IMG/VR virus record: IMGVR_UViG_2645727562_000019
DNA length: 12,458 nucleotides
From: a virus
Taxonomy: Duplodnaviria; Heunggongvirae; Uroviricota; Caudoviricetes
Reading direction: 5' to 3' (one strand)
Shown: piece after piece, positions 5,269 to 11,836 of the stretch
Numbering within the stretch: position 1 is the stretch's first letter
Layout of the letters: the number at the start of each line of letters is the position of its first letter
Translations under genes and position numbers: made by a program
The notes under the pieces: model-generated
The model's database searches: none
The model's input: the letters and a program-made list of their open reading frames with translations, nothing else
What the model was told of the DNA's origin: nothing

Positions 5269-6303
5269 TCAATATTTGATATACGCGTCCTGCACTTTGC
5301 CGCCAGCGATAGCCAACATTGCTTTCTGCGCGAATTCTTCGGGAATGCCTTGGGCTATCAGATCTGCGATTACTCTGCGGTTAACGGTACGGCGATGCTC
5401 TTTATCCGCAGCTCGGCGCGCTTCTTCGTCGGCGATACGCTTCTGTTCTTCAATGCGGGCTTTTTCTGCCTCCTCTTGGCGTCGGCGTTCCTCGGCAACG
5501 GCTTCTTCTTTTTCGCGTCGTGCACGCTGCTCTGCTTCAATTCGCTGACGTTCTGCTACTTCAGCACGTGCTTTCTCTTCCGCCGCCAGGCGTGCCGCAG
5601 CATCAATTTCAGCTTTCGCTTTTTGTTCAGCTTCGAGCCTGGCCTGTTCAGCAGCTTCCCGGCGGATATTCTCTTCTCGCTCAATGCGCGCTTTTTCCTC
5701 CGCTTCTTTGCGAAGTCTCTCCAGCTCAGCGGCTTCATGCTCGCGTTTTTGAGCTACTGCGAGTGATTCTTCCAGTTTCTGGATGGTTGAATCCTTGGCT
5801 ACTCCAGCTTCTGCTGCGTACTCCTGCCAACTCTCATCAAGTGCTACTGATTTAGCCTCTTGAATTCGTTCCTGAATATCAGTTGATGGCAAGTAGTTTC
5901 CGGAGAGATCGATCACGTCAGCCAGTGCTCGCAAATTTGTCAGGCGTTGTTGCAGTGCTTCAGTGCGTAATTTCTCAGCATTTTCCCACTCGGTGAGTGG
6001 GCGGCGTACTTCATCACGAAGCCGATCGCATTCGGTTACGAGGCGTCGTAACTCTGCTTCAACTACTTTCGGCTGTTCTTTCAGGCGTTTCAGATAATCA
6101 CGTCCTGGTTTTTCTACCGCTGTTTTACTTCTTGAAACCTTCGCAGCCAGAGATGCAATGCGCTTTCTGCCTTTGTCTGTGCTAATGTCAGGCACTTCAT
6201 TAACACCTTCACGGATCTGCTCGAGAAACTTTTCCAGTCCTTTTTCAACGTAAATTCTTGGTGCCATATCTGGTGTGATTTCGATGATTGATAATTCACT
6301 CAT
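5269..6303 (-). CDS. Coiled-coil protein with an E/A/R/K-rich low-complexity segment, function unknown
   Basis: 344-aa ORF with a strong GGGAGGAGG SD before ATG 6303. The central ~120 aa are repetitive (EAEEKARIERE..., AEQKAKAEIDAAARLAAEEKARAEVAERQRIEAEQRARREKEEA). Coding potential is supported by operon context and the ATGA overlap with the upstream small ORF. Confidence 0.7.
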   Translation of the reverse strand: MSELSIIEITPDMAPRIYVEKGLEKFLEQIREGVNEVPDISTDKGRKRIASLAAKVSRSKTAVEKPGRDYLKRLKEQPKVVEAELRRLVTECDRLRDEVRRPLTEWENAEKLRTEALQQRLTNLRALADVIDLSGNYLPSTDIQERIQEAKSVALDESWQEYAAEAGVAKDSTIQKLEESLAVAQKREHEAAELERLRKEAEEKARIEREENIRREAAEQARLEAEQKAKAEIDAAARLAAEEKARAEVAERQRIEAEQRARREKEEAVAEERRRQEEAEKARIEEQKRIADEEARRAADKEHRRTVNRRVIADLIAQGIPEEFAQKAMLAIAGGKVQDAYIKY

Positions 6304-6480: not shown

Positions 6481-6557
6481 TTACCGTTGAGGTAATAATT
6501 ATGCGTATCTGGTTTGATGTCAATAGATATGAGTTAAAAAAATTACCCGTTAGGTAA
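6481..6557 (-). promoter_or_regulatory. PL-like early-left promoter with two operator palindromes
   Basis: Minus-strand TTGACA (-35) at 6518-6523 followed by an AT-rich -10 region. TTACCGTTGAGGTAA at 6481-6495 lies between the -10 and the mRNA start; TTACCCGTTAGGTAA at 6543-6557 lies 19 bp upstream of the -35. The layout mirrors lambda OL/PL. Confidence 0.6.
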
Positions 6558-6614: not shown

Positions 6615-7199
6615 TTATTGTTTGTTTTTTTCGTTCTGGTTGATGACAAATTCAATGTAACTTTCGATCTTTGCTTTCTCGGTTTCGGGTAACAAAGCGT
6701 AGCGCGAGCGGTCATAGTTGATAGTCGCAGGGTCGTGCGGGTGAATCAGTAATTCATAGCCGTGACGCCCGAATGCGGATGCAACATTCTCCAGGGTGGA
6801 AATGGAAACGCTGACCTCATTGTTTAACAGGCGGCTGATTGTCACCTGGGCGACGCCGGATGCGCGGTGAAGTTTTCCCTGCGTTGAAAGGTCGCGGCTT
6901 TCGCTCATCCAGCGTTCCAGGTTGTGAGCCGCCAGCTGACCAATGTCGCTTGGTCCGACAGGCTGAAAACCTTCCTGAGAAAGCGAGCGATCGATATCAA
7001 GCCAGTTACGGGGTTTATTGGCGGCAGCTTCAATTTTTCGCGCAACCTGGTCGCCGATAACCTTCTTGCCAAGAGCCCAGCGGTTTACCAGATTTGCCTG
7101 AGTTCCAAGTTTTTCTGCCATCCGCGTCTGAACACCATTGAATTCACGGTCGATCAAGTCGTTGAGATTTTGCCTACGGACGTCCTGGATACTTTTCAT
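6615..7199 (-). CDS. Prophage repressor candidate (CI-like role): two XRE-type HTH domains, no recognisable S24 peptidase/autocleavage domain
   Basis: 194 aa. N-terminal HTH-like segment VQTRMAEKLGTQANLVNRWALGKK and a second HTH-like segment LSTQGKLHRASGVAQVTISRLLNNEVSVSISTLENVASAF. Divergent from the Cro-like gene with an operator cluster between them; no obvious SD before ATG 7199. Confidence 0.65.
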   Translation of the reverse strand: MKSIQDVRRQNLNDLIDREFNGVQTRMAEKLGTQANLVNRWALGKKVIGDQVARKIEAAANKPRNWLDIDRSLSQEGFQPVGPSDIGQLAAHNLERWMSESRDLSTQGKLHRASGVAQVTISRLLNNEVSVSISTLENVASAFGRHGYELLIHPHDPATINYDRSRYALLPETEKAKIESYIEFVINQNEKNKQ

Positions 7200-7254: not shown

Positions 7255-7328
7255 TTACCCAACAGGTAAATGCACCCCATAGGTAACCATCCTTGATTTT
7301 TGTTACCTTATGGGTGAATATTTATTAT
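7255..7328. promoter_or_regulatory. OR-like operator cluster with PR-like promoter
   Basis: Three palindromes: TTACCCAACAGGTAA (7255-7269), GCACCCCATAGGTAA (7272-7286) and TTACCTTATGGGTGA (7303-7317). Candidate rightward promoter TTGTTA (7300-7305), 17-bp spacer, TATTAT (7323-7328), 26 bp before the cro-like ATG. Confidence 0.55.
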
Positions 7329-7353: not shown

Positions 7354-7584
7354 ATGAGCGATAACGAACATTTCGATTTCAAAAAGCACTGGCTTGCACT
7401 TACTCCAGATGAGCGTGAAGCCTTCGCACAGGAAGCCGGAACGACGAGTCACTATATCCAGACTCACTTAACAGGTAAGCGCAAAATGCCAGGTAAAGTA
7501 TTGATGAATGGGCTTTTTAAAGCCTGTAAATCAAGACAATGGTTGCGCTCAAAAGCAGAACTGGCATACTTCTTCTACTCATGA
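7354..7584 (+). CDS. Cro-like small HTH regulator
   Basis: 76-aa ORF divergent from the repressor and immediately downstream of the operator cluster. HTH-like segment AFAQEAGTTSHYIQTHLTGKRKMP. Followed by an intrinsic terminator. Confidence 0.55.
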   Translation: MSDNEHFDFKKHWLALTPDEREAFAQEAGTTSHYIQTHLTGKRKMPGKVLMNGLFKACKSRQWLRSKAELAYFFYS

Positions 7585-7639: not shown

Positions 7640-7654
7640 GCACCTCAAAGGTAA
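7640..7654. promoter_or_regulatory. Isolated operator-like palindrome between the tR1-like terminator and the zinc-ribbon gene
   Basis: GCACCTCAAAGGTAA, the same variant form as the OR site at 7272-7286. Confidence 0.35.
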
Positions 7655-7734
7655 TAAAAAACCAAATCTGGTTGATCTTTTTTTTGTGTCAGCACAAAAT
7701 AACCGTAATCCCAATACTAATAACAGGGCTTACC

Positions 7735-7950: not shown

Positions 7951-8790
7951 ATGAGCAGACATGCAACAGATTGGGCCTGGGAGACAGATCCAGGTAGCTC
8001 GTCATTAAAGCTCATACTGCTCTCGATGGCTGACAGAGCCGATGAATATAACCTCTGCTACCCCAGCATAGAACGCCTCGTTAAAGACACTTGCCTGAAT
8101 AAAAAAACCGTACAGGCCGGGCTTATATCGCTCATGAAAATGGGGCTTATTTCAGATACCGGAGAGAGAAAGGGAGCGACGAAAAGAGTGCGGGTTTTCT
8201 CTCTTAATATAACCAAAAAAGGGAACATTAAAGGCAACCTAGATGGGTGTAATGAACCCGAAAACGGTAATGTTCCCAAAAACGGGAATATACCCAAAAA
8301 CGGGATGTTGAATGATCCCAAAAACGGGATGTTGAATGATCCCAAAAACGGGATGTTGAATGATCCCAAAAACGGGATCCAGAACCAGTCATATAACCAG
8401 TCATTTAACCAAGAGAGGGAGAGCAGGACAAAAACCGGGGATTCTGTGCCTCATGACCCCGGCGCAAACAACGCCGTGATGAATAACTTTGTTCCTCCTG
8501 GTGGGCCAGGGCAATTAGGCAAATTTGTCATGCATGAACAATGGCAGCCATCAGATGACTTTCTTCGGAAAAGCTCATTGCAGGGAATCTACCTGGACAG
8601 TCTGCCAACGGCACAGGAACTTGCAGAGTTCAGAATTTACTGGATGGCTGAGGGTAAGGCATACCATCAGGCACAGTGGGAGCAGAAGCTGGCAAGGCGG
8701 CTGCAGATTAGCAGACAGAAGCAATCAACATTACCTGATAACAACGTTCCGCACTGGAACAGCCCTGAAGCATGGGAGGATTTCTTGTGA
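7951..8790 (+). CDS. Replication initiator (lambda O-like), N-terminal winged-helix DNA-binding domain, iterons embedded in the coding sequence
   Basis: 279 aa; GGAG SD 7 nt upstream. N-terminal DWAWETDPGSSSLKLILLSMADRADEYNLCYPSIERL resembles phage replication-initiator HTH domains. The middle encodes PKNGMLND x3 from iteron DNA, as in lambda O. Placed directly upstream of the P-like gene. Confidence 0.75.
   Translation: MSRHATDWAWETDPGSSSLKLILLSMADRADEYNLCYPSIERLVKDTCLNKKTVQAGLISLMKMGLISDTGERKGATKRVRVFSLNITKKGNIKGNLDGCNEPENGNVPKNGNIPKNGMLNDPKNGMLNDPKNGMLNDPKNGIQNQSYNQSFNQERESRTKTGDSVPHDPGANNAVMNNFVPPGGPGQLGKFVMHEQWQPSDDFLRKSSLQGIYLDSLPTAQELAEFRIYWMAEGKAYHQAQWEQKLARRLQISRQKQSTLPDNNVPHWNSPEAWEDFL
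8257..8378 (+). repeat. Origin-of-replication iterons: six copies of the CCCAAAAACGGGA core (three as the perfect 16-bp palindrome ATCCCAAAAACGGGAT)
   Basis: Cores start at 8257 (degenerate CCCGAAAACGGTA), 8275, 8293, 8317, 8341 and 8365, spaced 18, 18, 24, 24, 24 bp. Followed by the AT-richer direct repeat CCAGTCATATAACCAGTCATTTAACC (8383-8410). Confidence 0.8.
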
Positions 8791-9572
8791 ACAACGTTTT
8801 TACCGCGATACAAAACCGTGACGGAGAAGCCCTTTCTCGCATGTCAGGTTATGAGCATCAGTACACCAACAATGACAACGTGGTGAACATGTCAGCAGAG
8901 AGGCTTGTTGATGCCCTTTTCAAACAGCTGAAACAACTGTTTCCGGCGGCAGTGGTAACCAACCTGAAGACGCCAGAGCAGGAAGTTGCTGCAAAACAGC
9001 AGTGGATTGCTGCGTTTGCCGAAGGGGGGATCCGAACCCGTGAACAGGTTTCTGCTGGTATGCGCCACGCCCGCGCCAGTGAATCTCCGTTCTGGCCGTC
9101 GCCAGGGCAATTCATCAAGTGGTGTAAAGACAGCAAGATGGTTCTTGGCGTCACCATTGACGATGTGATGGCGGAGTTTCACCGGTACAGCAAGGAAAAA
9201 AGTTTATATCCTGGTGGTCCCGAAAGATTCCCGTGGCGACATCCGGTTATGTACTGGGTCGTATGTGATACCCGCCGTGCAATGTATCAGCGCCAGCTTA
9301 GCGAGATTGAGGTTGAGAAACACGCGCGCAGGCTGCTCGATGATTGGGCGAAAAAGGTGGCTTCCGGACAGCAGATACCCGATCCGGTGATCAGCATACA
9401 GGCAAAGCCAGAACCCATGAGTACACCTCCGGACACAGGGAGAGACGTTTACCATCCACCAGGGCGAAGTTTCGGGTGCATGCCTAACGCCGCCACCCTG
9501 GGGGGAATAACACCGGCGCAGTGGCTGATGGAGGAATACAGGCGGGGAAAGGCGGCAGGATTTATCAAGTAA
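8787..9572 (+). CDS. Replication protein P-like (DnaB helicase loader)
   Basis: Clear resemblance to lambda P as recalled: FPAAVVTNLKTPEQEVAAKQQWIAAFAEGGIRTREQVSAGMRHARASESPFWPSPGQFIKWCKDS against lambda FPASLA...RRQWVLAFRENGITTMEQVNAGMRVARRQNRPFLPSPGQFVAWCRE. Start taken at GTG 8787 with GGAGG 7 nt upstream (GTGA overlap with the O stop); the track alternative is ATG 8772. Confidence 0.85.
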   Translation: MNNVFTAIQNRDGEALSRMSGYEHQYTNNDNVVNMSAERLVDALFKQLKQLFPAAVVTNLKTPEQEVAAKQQWIAAFAEGGIRTREQVSAGMRHARASESPFWPSPGQFIKWCKDSKMVLGVTIDDVMAEFHRYSKEKSLYPGGPERFPWRHPVMYWVVCDTRRAMYQRQLSEIEVEKHARRLLDDWAKKVASGQQIPDPVISIQAKPEPMSTPPDTGRDVYHPPGRSFGCMPNAATLGGITPAQWLMEEYRRGKAAGFIK

Positions 9573-9577
9573 TACCA

Positions 9578-9597
9578 GCGCGATAGCGCATTTTTTT
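9578..9597 (+). terminator. Candidate intrinsic terminator after the P-like gene
   Basis: GCGC-gata-GCGC short GC stem followed by A-T7 (9590-9597), 6 bp after the P stop. The stem is short, so efficiency is uncertain. Confidence 0.4.
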
Positions 9598-9609
9598 ACG
9601 CCTCAATAG

Positions 9610-9686
9610 TTACCTGATGGGTAATAAAATATTCTAAAATCTATTGATTTCGTGTCTTATGTGGTTTTTAATTACCTCAGGGGTAA
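9610..9686 (+). promoter_or_regulatory. Third operator-controlled promoter, with the same architecture as the PL-like region
   Basis: TTACCTGATGGGTAA (9610-9624), 19 bp, TTGATT -35 (9644-9649), 22 bp, TTACCTCAGGGGTAA (9672-9686), then ATG at 9690. The gaps (19 and 22 bp) and the 62-bp operator centre spacing are identical to the PL-like region read on its coding strand. Confidence 0.55.
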
Positions 9687-9689
9687 ATC

Positions 9690-10043
9690 ATGAGAAAACA
9701 GATACAGGCTCTTGGTCGACTCAAAACAGGCCAGATGAACAAAACAGAATCTGCGTATTGCCAGCACCTTGAGCAGCGTAAACGTGCAGGGGAAATCGCC
9801 TGGTATCGATTCGAGGGTATCAAGCTGCGGTTAGCTGATAACTGCTTCCTGACTGTAGATTTTGCCGTGATGTTGGCTGACGGGCAGTTGGTGATGGTGG
9901 ACGTTAAGGGAAGTAAGTCAGTCTTTACTGACGATGCGAGAGTCAAGATGAAGGTTGCGGCAGACAGCTATCCGTTTGTCTTTCAGGTTGCTTATCCAAA
10001 ACCTAAAAAGCTCGGTGGTGGATGGGAGGTTGAGGAACTATGA
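9690..10043 (+). CDS. DUF1064-family protein (PD-(D/E)XK nuclease-like fold)
   Basis: 117 aa; pattern ESAYCQHLEQRKRAGEI...FEGIKLRL...VDFAVMLADGQLVMVDVKG...KMK fits the phage DUF1064 family signature as recalled (...AGEI...F.L...Y.ADF...VEDVKG...). Stop overlaps the next ATG (ATGA). Confidence 0.6.
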   Translation: MRKQIQALGRLKTGQMNKTESAYCQHLEQRKRAGEIAWYRFEGIKLRLADNCFLTVDFAVMLADGQLVMVDVKGSKSVFTDDARVKMKVAADSYPFVFQVAYPKPKKLGGGWEVEEL

Positions 10044-10648
10044 GCGAGAAGCCCAATGCTGCGGGATTGATTGTATCCGGTGATAAAAACCCGAATTGGA
10101 AGGGTGGGAAAATCGAAAAGGTTTGCTCCGTATGTGGCAGGCAATATCAGGTTAAGCGAGCCAACTCCTCTTCAAGGTTCTGCTCACTTCAGTGTGTAGG
10201 AATTTCACAGCGAGGCAAGACGGTAAATCGGGAACTAAAGCGAGTATTAAAAATATGCTGCGTATGCGGATCTTCGTTCTCCGTTTTCTTGAGTCATGAG
10301 AAGCGTCATAAATGCTGCTCGAAACAGTGTTCCAACATAATGCGTTCTTCTCTGATGAAGGGGGAAGGAAATCCAAACTGGTCTGGTGGATTATCGAGAT
10401 TGCCGTATCCGTGGGATTTCCGAGAAACGAGCAAGAGGGTTATTGAGCGAGATGGTTTTACTTGTCAGAACCCAGGTTGTGATGGAACAGACAAAAGGCT
10501 AACAACTCATCATATCAATTACGACAAGCAAGACTGTCGTCAGGAGAACCTTATTTGTCTTTGTTCGAGCTGTAACTCGAAGGCTAATTTCGGTCGGCAT
10601 AAGTGGCAAAAGTTTTATGAATCACTGATGAAAAATAGATCGGCATGA
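10040..10648 (+). CDS. HNH endonuclease with duplicated N-terminal Cys-rich modules
   Basis: 202 aa. C-terminal HNH core CQNPGCDGTDKRLTTHHINYDKQDCRQENLICLCSSCNSKAN. NPNWKGG (aa ~17) and NPNWSGG (aa ~111) motifs, with two Cys-rich segments between them: CSVCGRQYQVKRANSSSRFCSLQC and CCVCGSSFSVFLSHEKRHKCCSKQC. Confidence 0.8.
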   Translation: MSEKPNAAGLIVSGDKNPNWKGGKIEKVCSVCGRQYQVKRANSSSRFCSLQCVGISQRGKTVNRELKRVLKICCVCGSSFSVFLSHEKRHKCCSKQCSNIMRSSLMKGEGNPNWSGGLSRLPYPWDFRETSKRVIERDGFTCQNPGCDGTDKRLTTHHINYDKQDCRQENLICLCSSCNSKANFGRHKWQKFYESLMKNRSA

Positions 10649-10709
10649 ATCGACGATCTTTTTAGTTATCAATGTAATCAATAAGTTATGTGGATAAGCG
10701 AGGGTAAAG

Positions 10710-11366
10710 ATGGAAAGTAATATCAAAGGGTTAGTTACCGCCGGGCATGAGATGGCTTCGGAACTGAAAGCAGAATGTGGCGCCGTTGATATGCGTAGTG
10801 TGGCAAAGCTGATCAGCGATTTGGCAACGCAACTGGAAGTGCAACTGGAAGTGCAACTGGTGCGTGCTAATGCGCTGGCCGAAGACCAACAGAAAGCGAT
10901 TGAGTCAATTAAGCAGGCTGATTCGGCTGTTAAGTTGGCACACGAGAAGTTTTCGGCGCTGGCGGCGGAGAATGCGGTAATGCTCGAAACTATTGAAGCC
11001 GTTCGCAGTGTTGCGGATAACTCCAGTGGAATTGCCGGATGGCATTTGAATGGCGATATCGCCACATGGGAAGAGATTCTTCCTGAAATTAACGATATCG
11101 AAACCCCAGCCACCGATGCTTTTCTGGCTGAAGGGAAGACTGAAGCACGCAAGGAAGGCGCTTATTTTGTGGCGAACAGAATGTTGGCAGCTTGGAAAGC
11201 TGGTTTTATTGATGATACTGCGAAGAACGCCGCGGATATTGCCCGGATGATCCTTACCTCTACTGAGTTTATGGCTAATGCGCCGGAAGGCGATTTTGAT
11301 CGCTCATTCTCTGATGGCGTTCTCGAAGATATCGCCGAACAGCTTCGTAAAGGAGTCATCCAATGA
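10710..11366 (+). CDS. Hypothetical protein (218 aa), acidic, with a short QLEV tandem repeat
   Basis: ORF with GAGGG SD about 10 nt upstream. No domain recognised by eye. Stop overlaps the next ATG (ATGA). Confidence 0.55.
   Translation: MESNIKGLVTAGHEMASELKAECGAVDMRSVAKLISDLATQLEVQLEVQLVRANALAEDQQKAIESIKQADSAVKLAHEKFSALAAENAVMLETIEAVRSVADNSSGIAGWHLNGDIATWEEILPEINDIETPATDAFLAEGKTEARKEGAYFVANRMLAAWKAGFIDDTAKNAADIARMILTSTEFMANAPEGDFDRSFSDGVLEDIAEQLRKGVIQ
10830..10862 (+). repeat. 12-bp tandem repeat CAACTGGAAGTG, about 2.7 copies, in frame within the 218-aa ORF
   Basis: gcaactggaagtgcaactggaagtgcaactggtg encodes QLEVQLEVQLV. Confidence 0.8.
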
Positions 11367-11836
11367 GCAAGATTGATTATCAAAAGCTTCGTGAAATCGC
11401 TGAAAAAACAAAAATTGCTGGTGAAGCACCTGTAATGCCTTTCGATCAGCGAATTAATGCGCTTAACGATTTTATGAAGCACTTTTCGCCAGATATCGCG
11501 CTGGCATTGTTGGATGAATGGGAAAGAAACCAGCAATACATCAAACGCCGCGATCAGGAGAACGAGGATATTGCGCTAACGGTAGGGAAGCTGCGCGTTG
11601 AGCTTGAAGCAGCAAAATCAAAACTCAACGAGCAGCGTGAATATTACGAGGGAGTAATCGCGGATGGAAGTAAGCGCATAGCAGAACTGGAGGAGCGGGA
11701 AATACTGCTCCCGGAACGTAGCAGCATGCTTCATCGAACAGATTTTCACGAGGATTACCAAACGGTAATGGCATACAAAGTTTCTGAAGTCATCGATGCA
11801 ATCCGCGCTACTGGCATTCGCATCAAAGGAGAGTGA
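11363..11836 (+). CDS. Hypothetical coiled-coil protein (157 aa)
   Basis: ORF coupled by ATGA to the upstream gene. Coiled-coil-like segment LRVELEAAKSKLNEQREYYEGVIADGSKRIAELEERE. Function unknown. Confidence 0.5.
   Translation: MSKIDYQKLREIAEKTKIAGEAPVMPFDQRINALNDFMKHFSPDIALALLDEWERNQQYIKRRDQENEDIALTVGKLRVELEAAKSKLNEQREYYEGVIADGSKRIAELEEREILLPERSSMLHRTDFHEDYQTVMAYKVSEVIDAIRATGIRIKGE

Follow-up and report, generated by a model that had tools for sequence, protein, structure and literature searches.

A predicted repressor-controlled promoter region conserved across Uetakevirus and a probable homing endonuclease gene inserted at the end of DUF1064 in an Escherichia coli prophage

The 12,458-nucleotide stretch of viral DNA analyzed here (IMG/VR record IMGVR_UViG_2645727562_000019, hereafter the window) derives from a phiV10-like (Uetakevirus) prophage of Escherichia coli, and it is 100% identical to a prophage of E. 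coli strain 602687 (NZ_CP189657.1) that is integrated beside guaA. Region 9578–10648 of the window contains a weak terminator, a candidate promoter flanked by two operators, a gene encoding a DUF1064-type nuclease, and a gene encoding an HNH endonuclease. We consider it fairly probable that this region combines a genus-conserved early promoter under the control of the phage repressor, a resident nuclease, and a selfish HNH gene inserted by homing. An earlier note on the same DNA, made from the letters alone (the sequence-only reading), had proposed the region as a candidate undescribed system; what we find is instead a known type of regulation together with a known type of selfish element.

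Six sites of the window match the palindrome TTACC-N5-GGTAA with no more than one mismatch, compared with 0.17 sites expected, and a count of six was reached in none of 200 shuffles. The sites are at 6481 and 6543 in a PL-like region, at 7255 and 7303 in the PR/PRM region, and at 9610 and 9672 before the DUF1064 gene start at 9690, and a search allowing two mismatches adds a further operator at 7272 in PR/PRM. Operator 1 of the third pair (TTACCTGATGGGTAA, 9610–9624) and operator 2 (TTACCTCAGGGGTAA, 9672–9686) both match the palindrome perfectly, and a separate control region with immunity-repressor operators does stand before the DUF1064 gene, as had been proposed. When read on their coding strands, the PL-like and third regions share the layout of operator, 19 nt, ATCTA-TTGAyw, 22 nt, and operator, and the operators are 62 bp apart, start to start, in both. 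The PL-like region (6481–6557, minus strand) consists of operators 6481–6495 and 6543–6557 with TTGACA at 6523–6518 and AATTAT at 6500–6495. On the plus strand of the third region, the candidate −35 is TTGATT (9644–9649), preceded by ATCTA as at PL, and after a 17-nt spacer the candidate −10 is TTTAAT (9667–9672), assigned by positional analogy with the AATTAT of PL. The last T of TTTAAT is the first base of operator 2, which overlaps the predicted transcription start, and the right half of operator 2 is at the same time the Shine-Dalgarno sequence of the DUF1064 gene. The description of the third region as a near-copy of PL is correct for the architecture and overstated for sequence identity, as 23 of the 47 positions between the operators match (shuffle p = 0.007), mostly within the ATCTATTGA block.

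The weak intrinsic terminator that the sequence-only reading placed after the lambda-P-like gene is present at 9578–9597 on the plus strand, and is composed of a GCGC-GATA-GCGC stem-loop (9578–9589) with a 4-bp GC stem, followed by seven T residues (9591–9597). Folding gives −7.4 kcal/mol with z = −2.2. The stem and T-run are kept, with a variable loop, in phiV10, epsilon15, and seven further relatives (L004–L010), and the phiV10 record annotates the counterpart as a terminator. A minus-strand promoter-like site between the operators (9658–9631; AAGACA, 16 nt, TAGAAT) is at chance level and was set aside; it is oriented leftward and would be antisense to the final part of P, and by eye its hexamers are not kept in the aligned relatives.

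The module of terminator, operator, promoter, and operator is conserved across the genus Uetakevirus. Among the best 80 DUF1064 loci in IMG/VR, the operator pair is 62 bp apart in 70, at −80/−18 or −82/−20 from the ATG; operator 2 is at −18 in 66 loci and at −20 in 4 more. Seven of the 80 have two adjacent operators at −37/−19 and one has a single site, and a Pectobacterium prophage likewise keeps two operators at its DUF1064 gene in a similar adjacent arrangement. The same two operators and TTGATT are found before the DUF1064 gene of phiV10. The epsilon15 pair is also 62 bp apart (L002, 6908/6970); its RefSeq record labels only the upstream operator, as "protein_bind repressor," and the gene that follows encodes a RuvC-like Holliday-junction resolvase rather than DUF1064. 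In SPC32H the operator pair precedes a 114-amino-acid "putative restriction endonuclease" gene, at the position that DUF1064 occupies in phiV10. A profile of 65 distinct relative sequences revealed that the operator half-sites and CTATTGA are invariant and that TGG-TTTTTAAT is nearly so, with the five central bases of operator 1 varying freely. This pattern is the signature expected of a protein-binding palindrome flanking a promoter. The ZX5 paper gives four predicted promoters and contains no operator or transcript data for this control region.

Several observations weigh against a working promoter at this position. The candidate −10 lacks an A at position 2, a consensus scan calls no plus-strand promoter at 9644–9672, and the leader would be just about 10 nt long if transcription began about 7 nt beyond the −10. 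Relatives from E. coli, Salmonella, Klebsiella, and Pectobacterium share one half-site pair, leaving no covariation of operator and repressor to read. The operator pair might have no promoter at all; it would then serve as a repressor roadblock or anchor a long-range loop to OR, at a distance of about 2.35 kb, and read-through from PR across the weak terminator would be the only source of DUF1064 and downstream expression. The distance between OR and the third pair resembles the OL–OR separation of lambda. The poor −10, the absence of a promoter call, the weak terminator with its 4-bp stem, and the tetrameric state of the repressor, as described for SPC32H Rep (PMC9638917), would all fit such an arrangement. 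On the other side, the CTATTGA −35 block and the A/T-rich −10 block match the operator half-sites in degree of conservation, the spacing equals that of PL base for base, and the other SPC32H operators are likewise in intergenic regions upstream of genes. At the equivalent place the relatives have TTAAAT or ATAAAT/TATAAA, the latter two being better −10 sequences than TTTAAT. We therefore regard the roadblock or looping arrangement as unlikely, if worth weighing, and retain the operator-flanked early promoter as the preferred explanation of the third pair.

The repressor gene (6615–7199, minus strand) encodes a 194-amino-acid protein with an HTH_3 domain, and it is a full-length homolog of the SPC32H repressor Rep (PDB 5D50; E = 4e-42 over residues 1–190). 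SPC32H Rep is described as a tetrameric DNA binder that is disabled by the antirepressor Ant (PMC9638917). Perfect operators are found in at least six intergenic regions of SPC32H, including OL, OR, and the third pair. Those at positions 12, 3175, and 20013 of SPC32H (L024) are before the small terminase gene, before the head block, and between ant and the tailspike gene, respectively. Further perfect operators are at 17855–17869 and 21015–21029 of the sequence L003, and the terminase operators of the E. coli prophage form a tandem pair directly after a strong terminator. From the positions of these sites, late and accessory units appear to be under direct control of the repressor along with PL and PR. 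Because operators are distributed genome-wide in SPC32H and the E. coli prophage, the third pair appears to be one of at least six control regions and not a switch dedicated to nucleases, which is how it had been interpreted. Nor is the promoter special to the window or to its two nuclease genes, since the module is genus-wide and heads the RuvC-like gene in epsilon15.

The first gene of the unit (9690–10043, plus strand) encodes a predicted 117-amino-acid DUF1064-type PD-(D/E)XK nuclease. Its score against PF06356 is 23.0 bits, under the gathering cut-off of 24.7, and its homology to DUF1064 is nonetheless not in doubt because it is 75–77% identical to PF06356-carrying proteins named DUF1064 by NCBI and matches PHROG 190, "Holliday junction resolvase" (E = 2.9e-37). 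In the DUF1064 family D57 and K73 are invariant and position 71 is D or E. The protein has a restriction-endonuclease-like fold with a D…(D/E)xK triad, matching the folds of Hjc and TnsA, and members of the family were previously predicted to be nucleases (PMC1189080). A PDB sequence search gave nothing useful for either the DUF1064 or the HNH protein. A resolvase role is the best inference from three indirect indications, namely the name of PHROG 190, the likeness of the fold to Hjc, and the RuvC-like gene that epsilon15 has in this position, and DUF1064 is probably the resident structure-specific nuclease or Holliday-junction resolvase of the replication and recombination module. In the Klebsiella-type contig L010 (3651–4001), the gene caller gives only a 34-amino-acid open reading frame (ORF) at DUF1064, upstream of an intact HNH gene; tblastn aligns the full 117 amino acids. 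Either the gene was miscalled there or the host gene of an intact endonuclease is disrupted.

The second gene (10040–10648, plus strand) encodes a 202-amino-acid HNH endonuclease whose start codon overlaps the DUF1064 stop codon as ATGA at 10040–10043. Both the overlap and the assignment of nuclease folds to the two ORFs in the sequence-only reading proved correct. The AlphaFold2 model (predicted local distance difference test score 88) shows two Cys4 zinc ribbons at the N-terminus and, at the C-terminus, an HNH domain that resembles those of McrA, Cap5, and Gme. The protein matches PHROG 1271, "HNH endonuclease" (E = 3.7e-23), and has no Pfam domain above threshold, HNH_3 being below the cut-off at E = 0.002. 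The predicted catalytic residues H158, N170, and N179 and the zinc cysteines C142/C147/C175/C178 are invariant in 57 homologs.

The HNH gene came in as a discrete insertion, and the recombination breakpoint falls within DUF1064. Identity of the window to phiV10 is 98.5% over 8700–9842 and falls to 62% in 9843–10028, and the alignment resumes only at 10646, the HNH stop codon. The acquired cassette (9843–10648, plus strand) thus comprises about 200 bp of a foreign DUF1064 3′ half and the HNH ORF, and the DUF1064 gene of the window is a chimera of phiV10-type sequence (9690–9842) and donor-type sequence (9843–10043). The foreign 3′ half is 92–95% identical to HNH-carrying relatives from other Enterobacterales. 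phiV10, phiv142-3, ZX5, and other Uetakevirus phages match the flanks of a 9400–10750 query at approximately 96–98%. The cassette is rare in E. coli: 22 genomes carry it, out of 531 that matched this query and 5426 complete genomes searched. It is always at the same site and at least 99% identical. Atypical composition was rejected as a decisive sign of acquisition, the difference being mild: the HNH gene has 44.5% G+C, compared with about 48–50% for the DUF1064 and eae-like genes and 53.7% for the P gene.

Comparison of empty and filled sites defines the junction. The consensus of the empty sites is …GGATGGrAyATCGAAGAGTTCTGA followed directly by ATCGACGATC, the sequence that begins at 10649 in the window, after the HNH stop codon. 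In phiV10 and a Klebsiella locus (L018) the empty site is …GAAGAGTTCTGA followed by ATCGACGATC, and the phiV10 site, within 35400–35600, has …GGAATATCGAAGAGTTCTGA followed by ATCGACGATC. Filled sites have the recoded tail …GGATGGGAGrTTGArGArytATGA, which supplies the Shine-Dalgarno sequence and the ATG of the HNH gene. The purine-rich Shine-Dalgarno-like stretch, as read from the window, is GGGAGGTTGAGGA in the last DUF1064 codons (10024–10036), and by comparison of the filled and empty consensus sequences it is absent from alleles without HNH (GGAATATCGAAGA). A Klebsiella michiganensis prophage has the same 117-amino-acid allele and 3′ half with no HNH gene and with a phiV10-type tail and junction. 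The idea that the 117-amino-acid allele is an HNH-specific partner was rejected, as two Klebsiella loci (L018 and L019) carry it without HNH.

The HNH ORF, which corresponds to complement 3469550–3470158 of NZ_CP189657.1, is intact and unannotated in RefSeq, and all 22 cassette-bearing E. coli genomes list a single feature under the match, the DUF1064 gene. NCBI gene calls also skip the intact HNH ORF in several Klebsiella assemblies (L020, L022, and L023).

The HNH family is small and is confined to one kind of site. It comprises 138 clusters at 50–100% identity, almost all of them metagenomic, compared with approximately 4700 clusters, about 30 times as many, for the DUF1064 family; no close homolog of the HNH protein was found among 50,697 phage records. 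An HNH homolog of at least 59% identity abuts or overlaps the DUF1064 3′ end in 19 of 19 IMG/VR loci, and every other context that was read, metagenomic or genomic and down to 56% identity, also abuts or overlaps a DUF1064 3′ end, with three unrelated phage backbones among them. Remnants of the DUF1064 tail can be recognized at the ends of HNH genes: the HNH protein of L017 ends in EEF and the HNH DNA of L021 ends in GAAGAGTTCTAA. At the same ATGA junction, the contig IMGVR_UViG_3300011154_000002 (L065, 1848–2351) contains an unrelated 167-amino-acid ORF with His-Me/HNH_3 and HTH_7 domains, whose C-terminus, KKAGGGWAIEEF, is a displaced copy of the DUF1064 tail. By its domains and position, this predicted endonuclease is a second family at the same insertion hot spot. 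Because of the fixed target gene, the sporadic distribution, the co-converted flanks, and the reuse of the site, the HNH gene has the hallmarks of a free-standing homing endonuclease. It is probably the representative of a new, unannotated family of such enzymes specialized on DUF1064 3′ ends. Of the earlier suggestions for the HNH gene, homing and competitor exclusion are supported.

Two features of the HNH gene do not sit easily with a selfish origin. Its identity to the window roughly co-varies with that of DUF1064 across distant phages, as it would for a functional pair, and all loci examined have it intact. The lack of any decayed copy among them is a little out of the ordinary if the gene is purely selfish. 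The sequence-only reading had treated the two genes as one module, and a dedicated two-nuclease module would act jointly on induction, for example in host DNA degradation or in defense or counter-defense, with the promoter existing for its sake. The overlap and translational coupling of the genes wherever HNH occurs, even on unrelated backbones, their roughly correlated divergence, and the conserved HNH catalytic residues are all compatible with this. An obligate module is contradicted by the presence of DUF1064 without HNH in phiV10 and in 71 of the 80 IMG/VR loci, and by the low frequency of the cassette among E. coli genomes containing the locus (22 of 531). The 5′ half of the window DUF1064 gene comes from a lineage without HNH, the L065 junction holds an unrelated endonuclease with a duplicated DUF1064 tail, and the promoter module also heads the RuvC-like gene of epsilon15. 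Congruence of the two genes is also incomplete, with HNH/DUF1064 identities to the window of 77%/90% in L009 and 84.5%/86% in L007. Of the two proteins, PADLOC recognizes only the HNH domain, through ZorE models; DUF1064 has no hit. A joint module is, in our judgment, quite unlikely. We give little credence to a related possibility, that the strict and ancient linkage of HNH to DUF1064 (56–100% identity, always coupled, always intact) reflects a real partnership. If it did, DUF1064 as a junction nuclease might, for instance, process a site-specific nick or break made by HNH, and the pair would form a two-enzyme device for recombination initiation or competitor exclusion, released only when the prophage repressor is lifted. 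We give as little weight to a milder novelty, that one tetrameric repressor holds the −35 elements of several promoters in micro-loops of a constant 62 bp.

The HNH gene could also be a domesticated accessory gene, for example a packaging helper or an anti-defense nuclease, that arrived by ordinary mosaic recombination with no homing involved. HNH proteins have been co-opted elsewhere, as in the terminase-associated HNH proteins, phage early regions are highly mosaic, and no decayed copies of the gene were seen. This explanation is very unlikely given that a single insertion point, the DUF1064 3′ end, is used across unrelated backbones, that the DUF1064 tail is recoded or duplicated at the junction, and that a second endonuclease family uses the same site. 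Its distance from the terminase genes and its rarity among relatives also count against domestication. SPC32H has a "putative HNH-endonuclease" gene of a different kind (L024, 31846–32256), located between its RecT-family and RecE-like genes. In epsilon15 these two genes are separate neighbors, and for phiV10 a fusion of them has been described; the SPC32H endonuclease gene may be a further homing-type insertion within the genus.

Under the interpretation that we favor, of a repressor-controlled early promoter, a resident nuclease, and a homing insertion, the SPC32H-type tetrameric repressor of the lysogen would bind both operators, the centers of which are approximately six helical turns apart and on the same face of the DNA. 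Binding would occlude the −10 and the start site and would probably enclose the −35 in a small loop. Repression would silence a third early unit, with DUF1064 first and continuing through the eae/ead-type genes. Upon inactivation of the repressor, by an antirepressor in this phage family, the unit would fire together with PL and PR; DUF1064 would most likely act as a branched-DNA or Holliday-junction resolvase, and the HNH gene, placed exactly at the DUF1064 stop codon, would be expressed by translational coupling. On this view a relative with HNH donated the gene to a phiV10-type prophage through break repair or recombination, and the final ~200 bp of DUF1064 were converted along with it. If a relative without HNH shared the cell, the endonuclease would cleave its intact DUF1064 3′ end or intergenic junction, or a point close by, and copy itself in.

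The unit does not appear to close after the HNH gene. A hairpin at 10637–10661 has z = −0.9, no better than shuffles, and its phiV10 equivalent has z = +0.4, so that a closed two-gene operon ending at 10648, as earlier supposed, was rejected. Same-strand genes continue with an eae-like gene (10710–11366) and an Ead/Ea22-like gene (11363–11836), and the folding scan found no convincing terminator between the HNH gene and these genes. The region is best seen as an "early-right 2" operon, predicted to be insulated from PR by the weak terminator and to have its own repressor-operated promoter.

The remainder of the window has a lambda-like gene order. Integrase and recombination genes with the leftward PL-like promoter are followed by the repressor gene and PR/PRM, and to the right of these are a cro-like gene (7354–7584), a strong terminator, a DnaT-like initiator gene with iterons (7951–8790), and the lambda-P-like gene (8772–9572), which precedes region 9578–10648. 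The PR/PRM operator cluster (7255–7317) contains a perfect site at 7255, a site with two mismatches at 7272, and a site with one mismatch at 7303, and the epsilon15 cluster has the same 17/30-bp operator spacing. A degenerate operator at 7640–7654 (GCACCTCAAAGGTAA, two mismatches; one mismatch in the phiV10 counterpart, L001 2253) is directly after the strong terminator of the cro-like gene and before an ORF at 7672, forming a terminator-then-operator boundary. The probable replication origin is inside the DnaT-like gene at 8249–8411, where 3.6 perfect copies of a 24-bp iteron (CCCAAAAACGGGATGTTGAATGAT, 8293–8378) are bordered by 18-bp (8249–8303) and 12-bp (8383–8411) repeats; the terminator scan misreads these iterons as three minus-strand terminators. 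In the PL operon, a 344-amino-acid ORF (5269–6303, minus strand) is located between homologs of phiV10 p38 and p39. phiV10 has p38 and p39 side by side, so the ORF has the look of an inserted accessory gene; its sole match is PHROG 1376 (function unknown, E = 2e-120), with no Pfam or PADLOC hit.

The closest known immunity systems are those of epsilon15, phiV10, and SPC32H (Rep, PDB 5D50/5D4Z), which share the repressor family, the TTACC-N5-GGTAA operator, and a third pair after the replication genes; compared with epsilon15, the window adds the HNH gene. Likeness to OL/PL and OR/PR of lambda extends to sigma-70 early promoters that would be occluded by the repressor, and to operators on the same face that would allow cooperative binding and a small loop. 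Cooperative binding of cI to operators 5–6 helical turns apart was reportedly demonstrated by Hochschild and Ptashne in 1986. In lambda the genes after P are read from PR through tR2 by N antitermination, whereas in the window each unit seems to be served by a control region of its own that carries operators, and these flank the promoter rather than standing in tandem. Induction in this phage family also differs from that of lambda, proceeding by antirepressor (PMC9638917) and not by repressor cleavage.

For the HNH gene, the nearest comparison is with free-standing phage homing endonucleases such as the HNH enzyme MobE of T4 (PMC2790892) and the seg and mob genes (reviewed in PMC2988022); nuclease genes are also known at recombination boundaries (PMC10448857). 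Shared features are an intergenic or gene-end position beside a conserved gene of DNA metabolism, variable presence among close relatives, a co-converted flank with a mosaic boundary, and an HNH catalytic domain accompanied by separate DNA-binding modules. Unlike enzymes of the MobE type, the window gene is in a temperate podovirus prophage under predicted immunity control, and its product has two N-terminal zinc ribbons before a C-terminal HNH domain with putative cleavage activity. The DUF1064 protein shares with PF06356 members (the phiH ORF25 family) and archaeal Hjc a length of approximately 115 amino acids, the D…(D/E)xK motif, and a location in the replication module, the window allele differing from PF06356 members in being just under the Pfam threshold.

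These findings do not overturn current understanding. They indicate that the "nin-like" early-right genes of phiV10/epsilon15-type prophages, which are common in E. coli, Salmonella, and Klebsiella, would form a separate repressor-controlled unit, and they reveal a 202-amino-acid HNH gene that RefSeq missed in all 22 carrier E. coli genomes. With an empty and a filled site, a breakpoint, and a second endonuclease family, the locus provides a clean natural example of what is probably homing-type gene conversion in a temperate phage. Under the predicted immunity control, the action of the endonuclease would be confined to the period after induction and to co-infection, the situation in which it could bias inheritance against related prophages.

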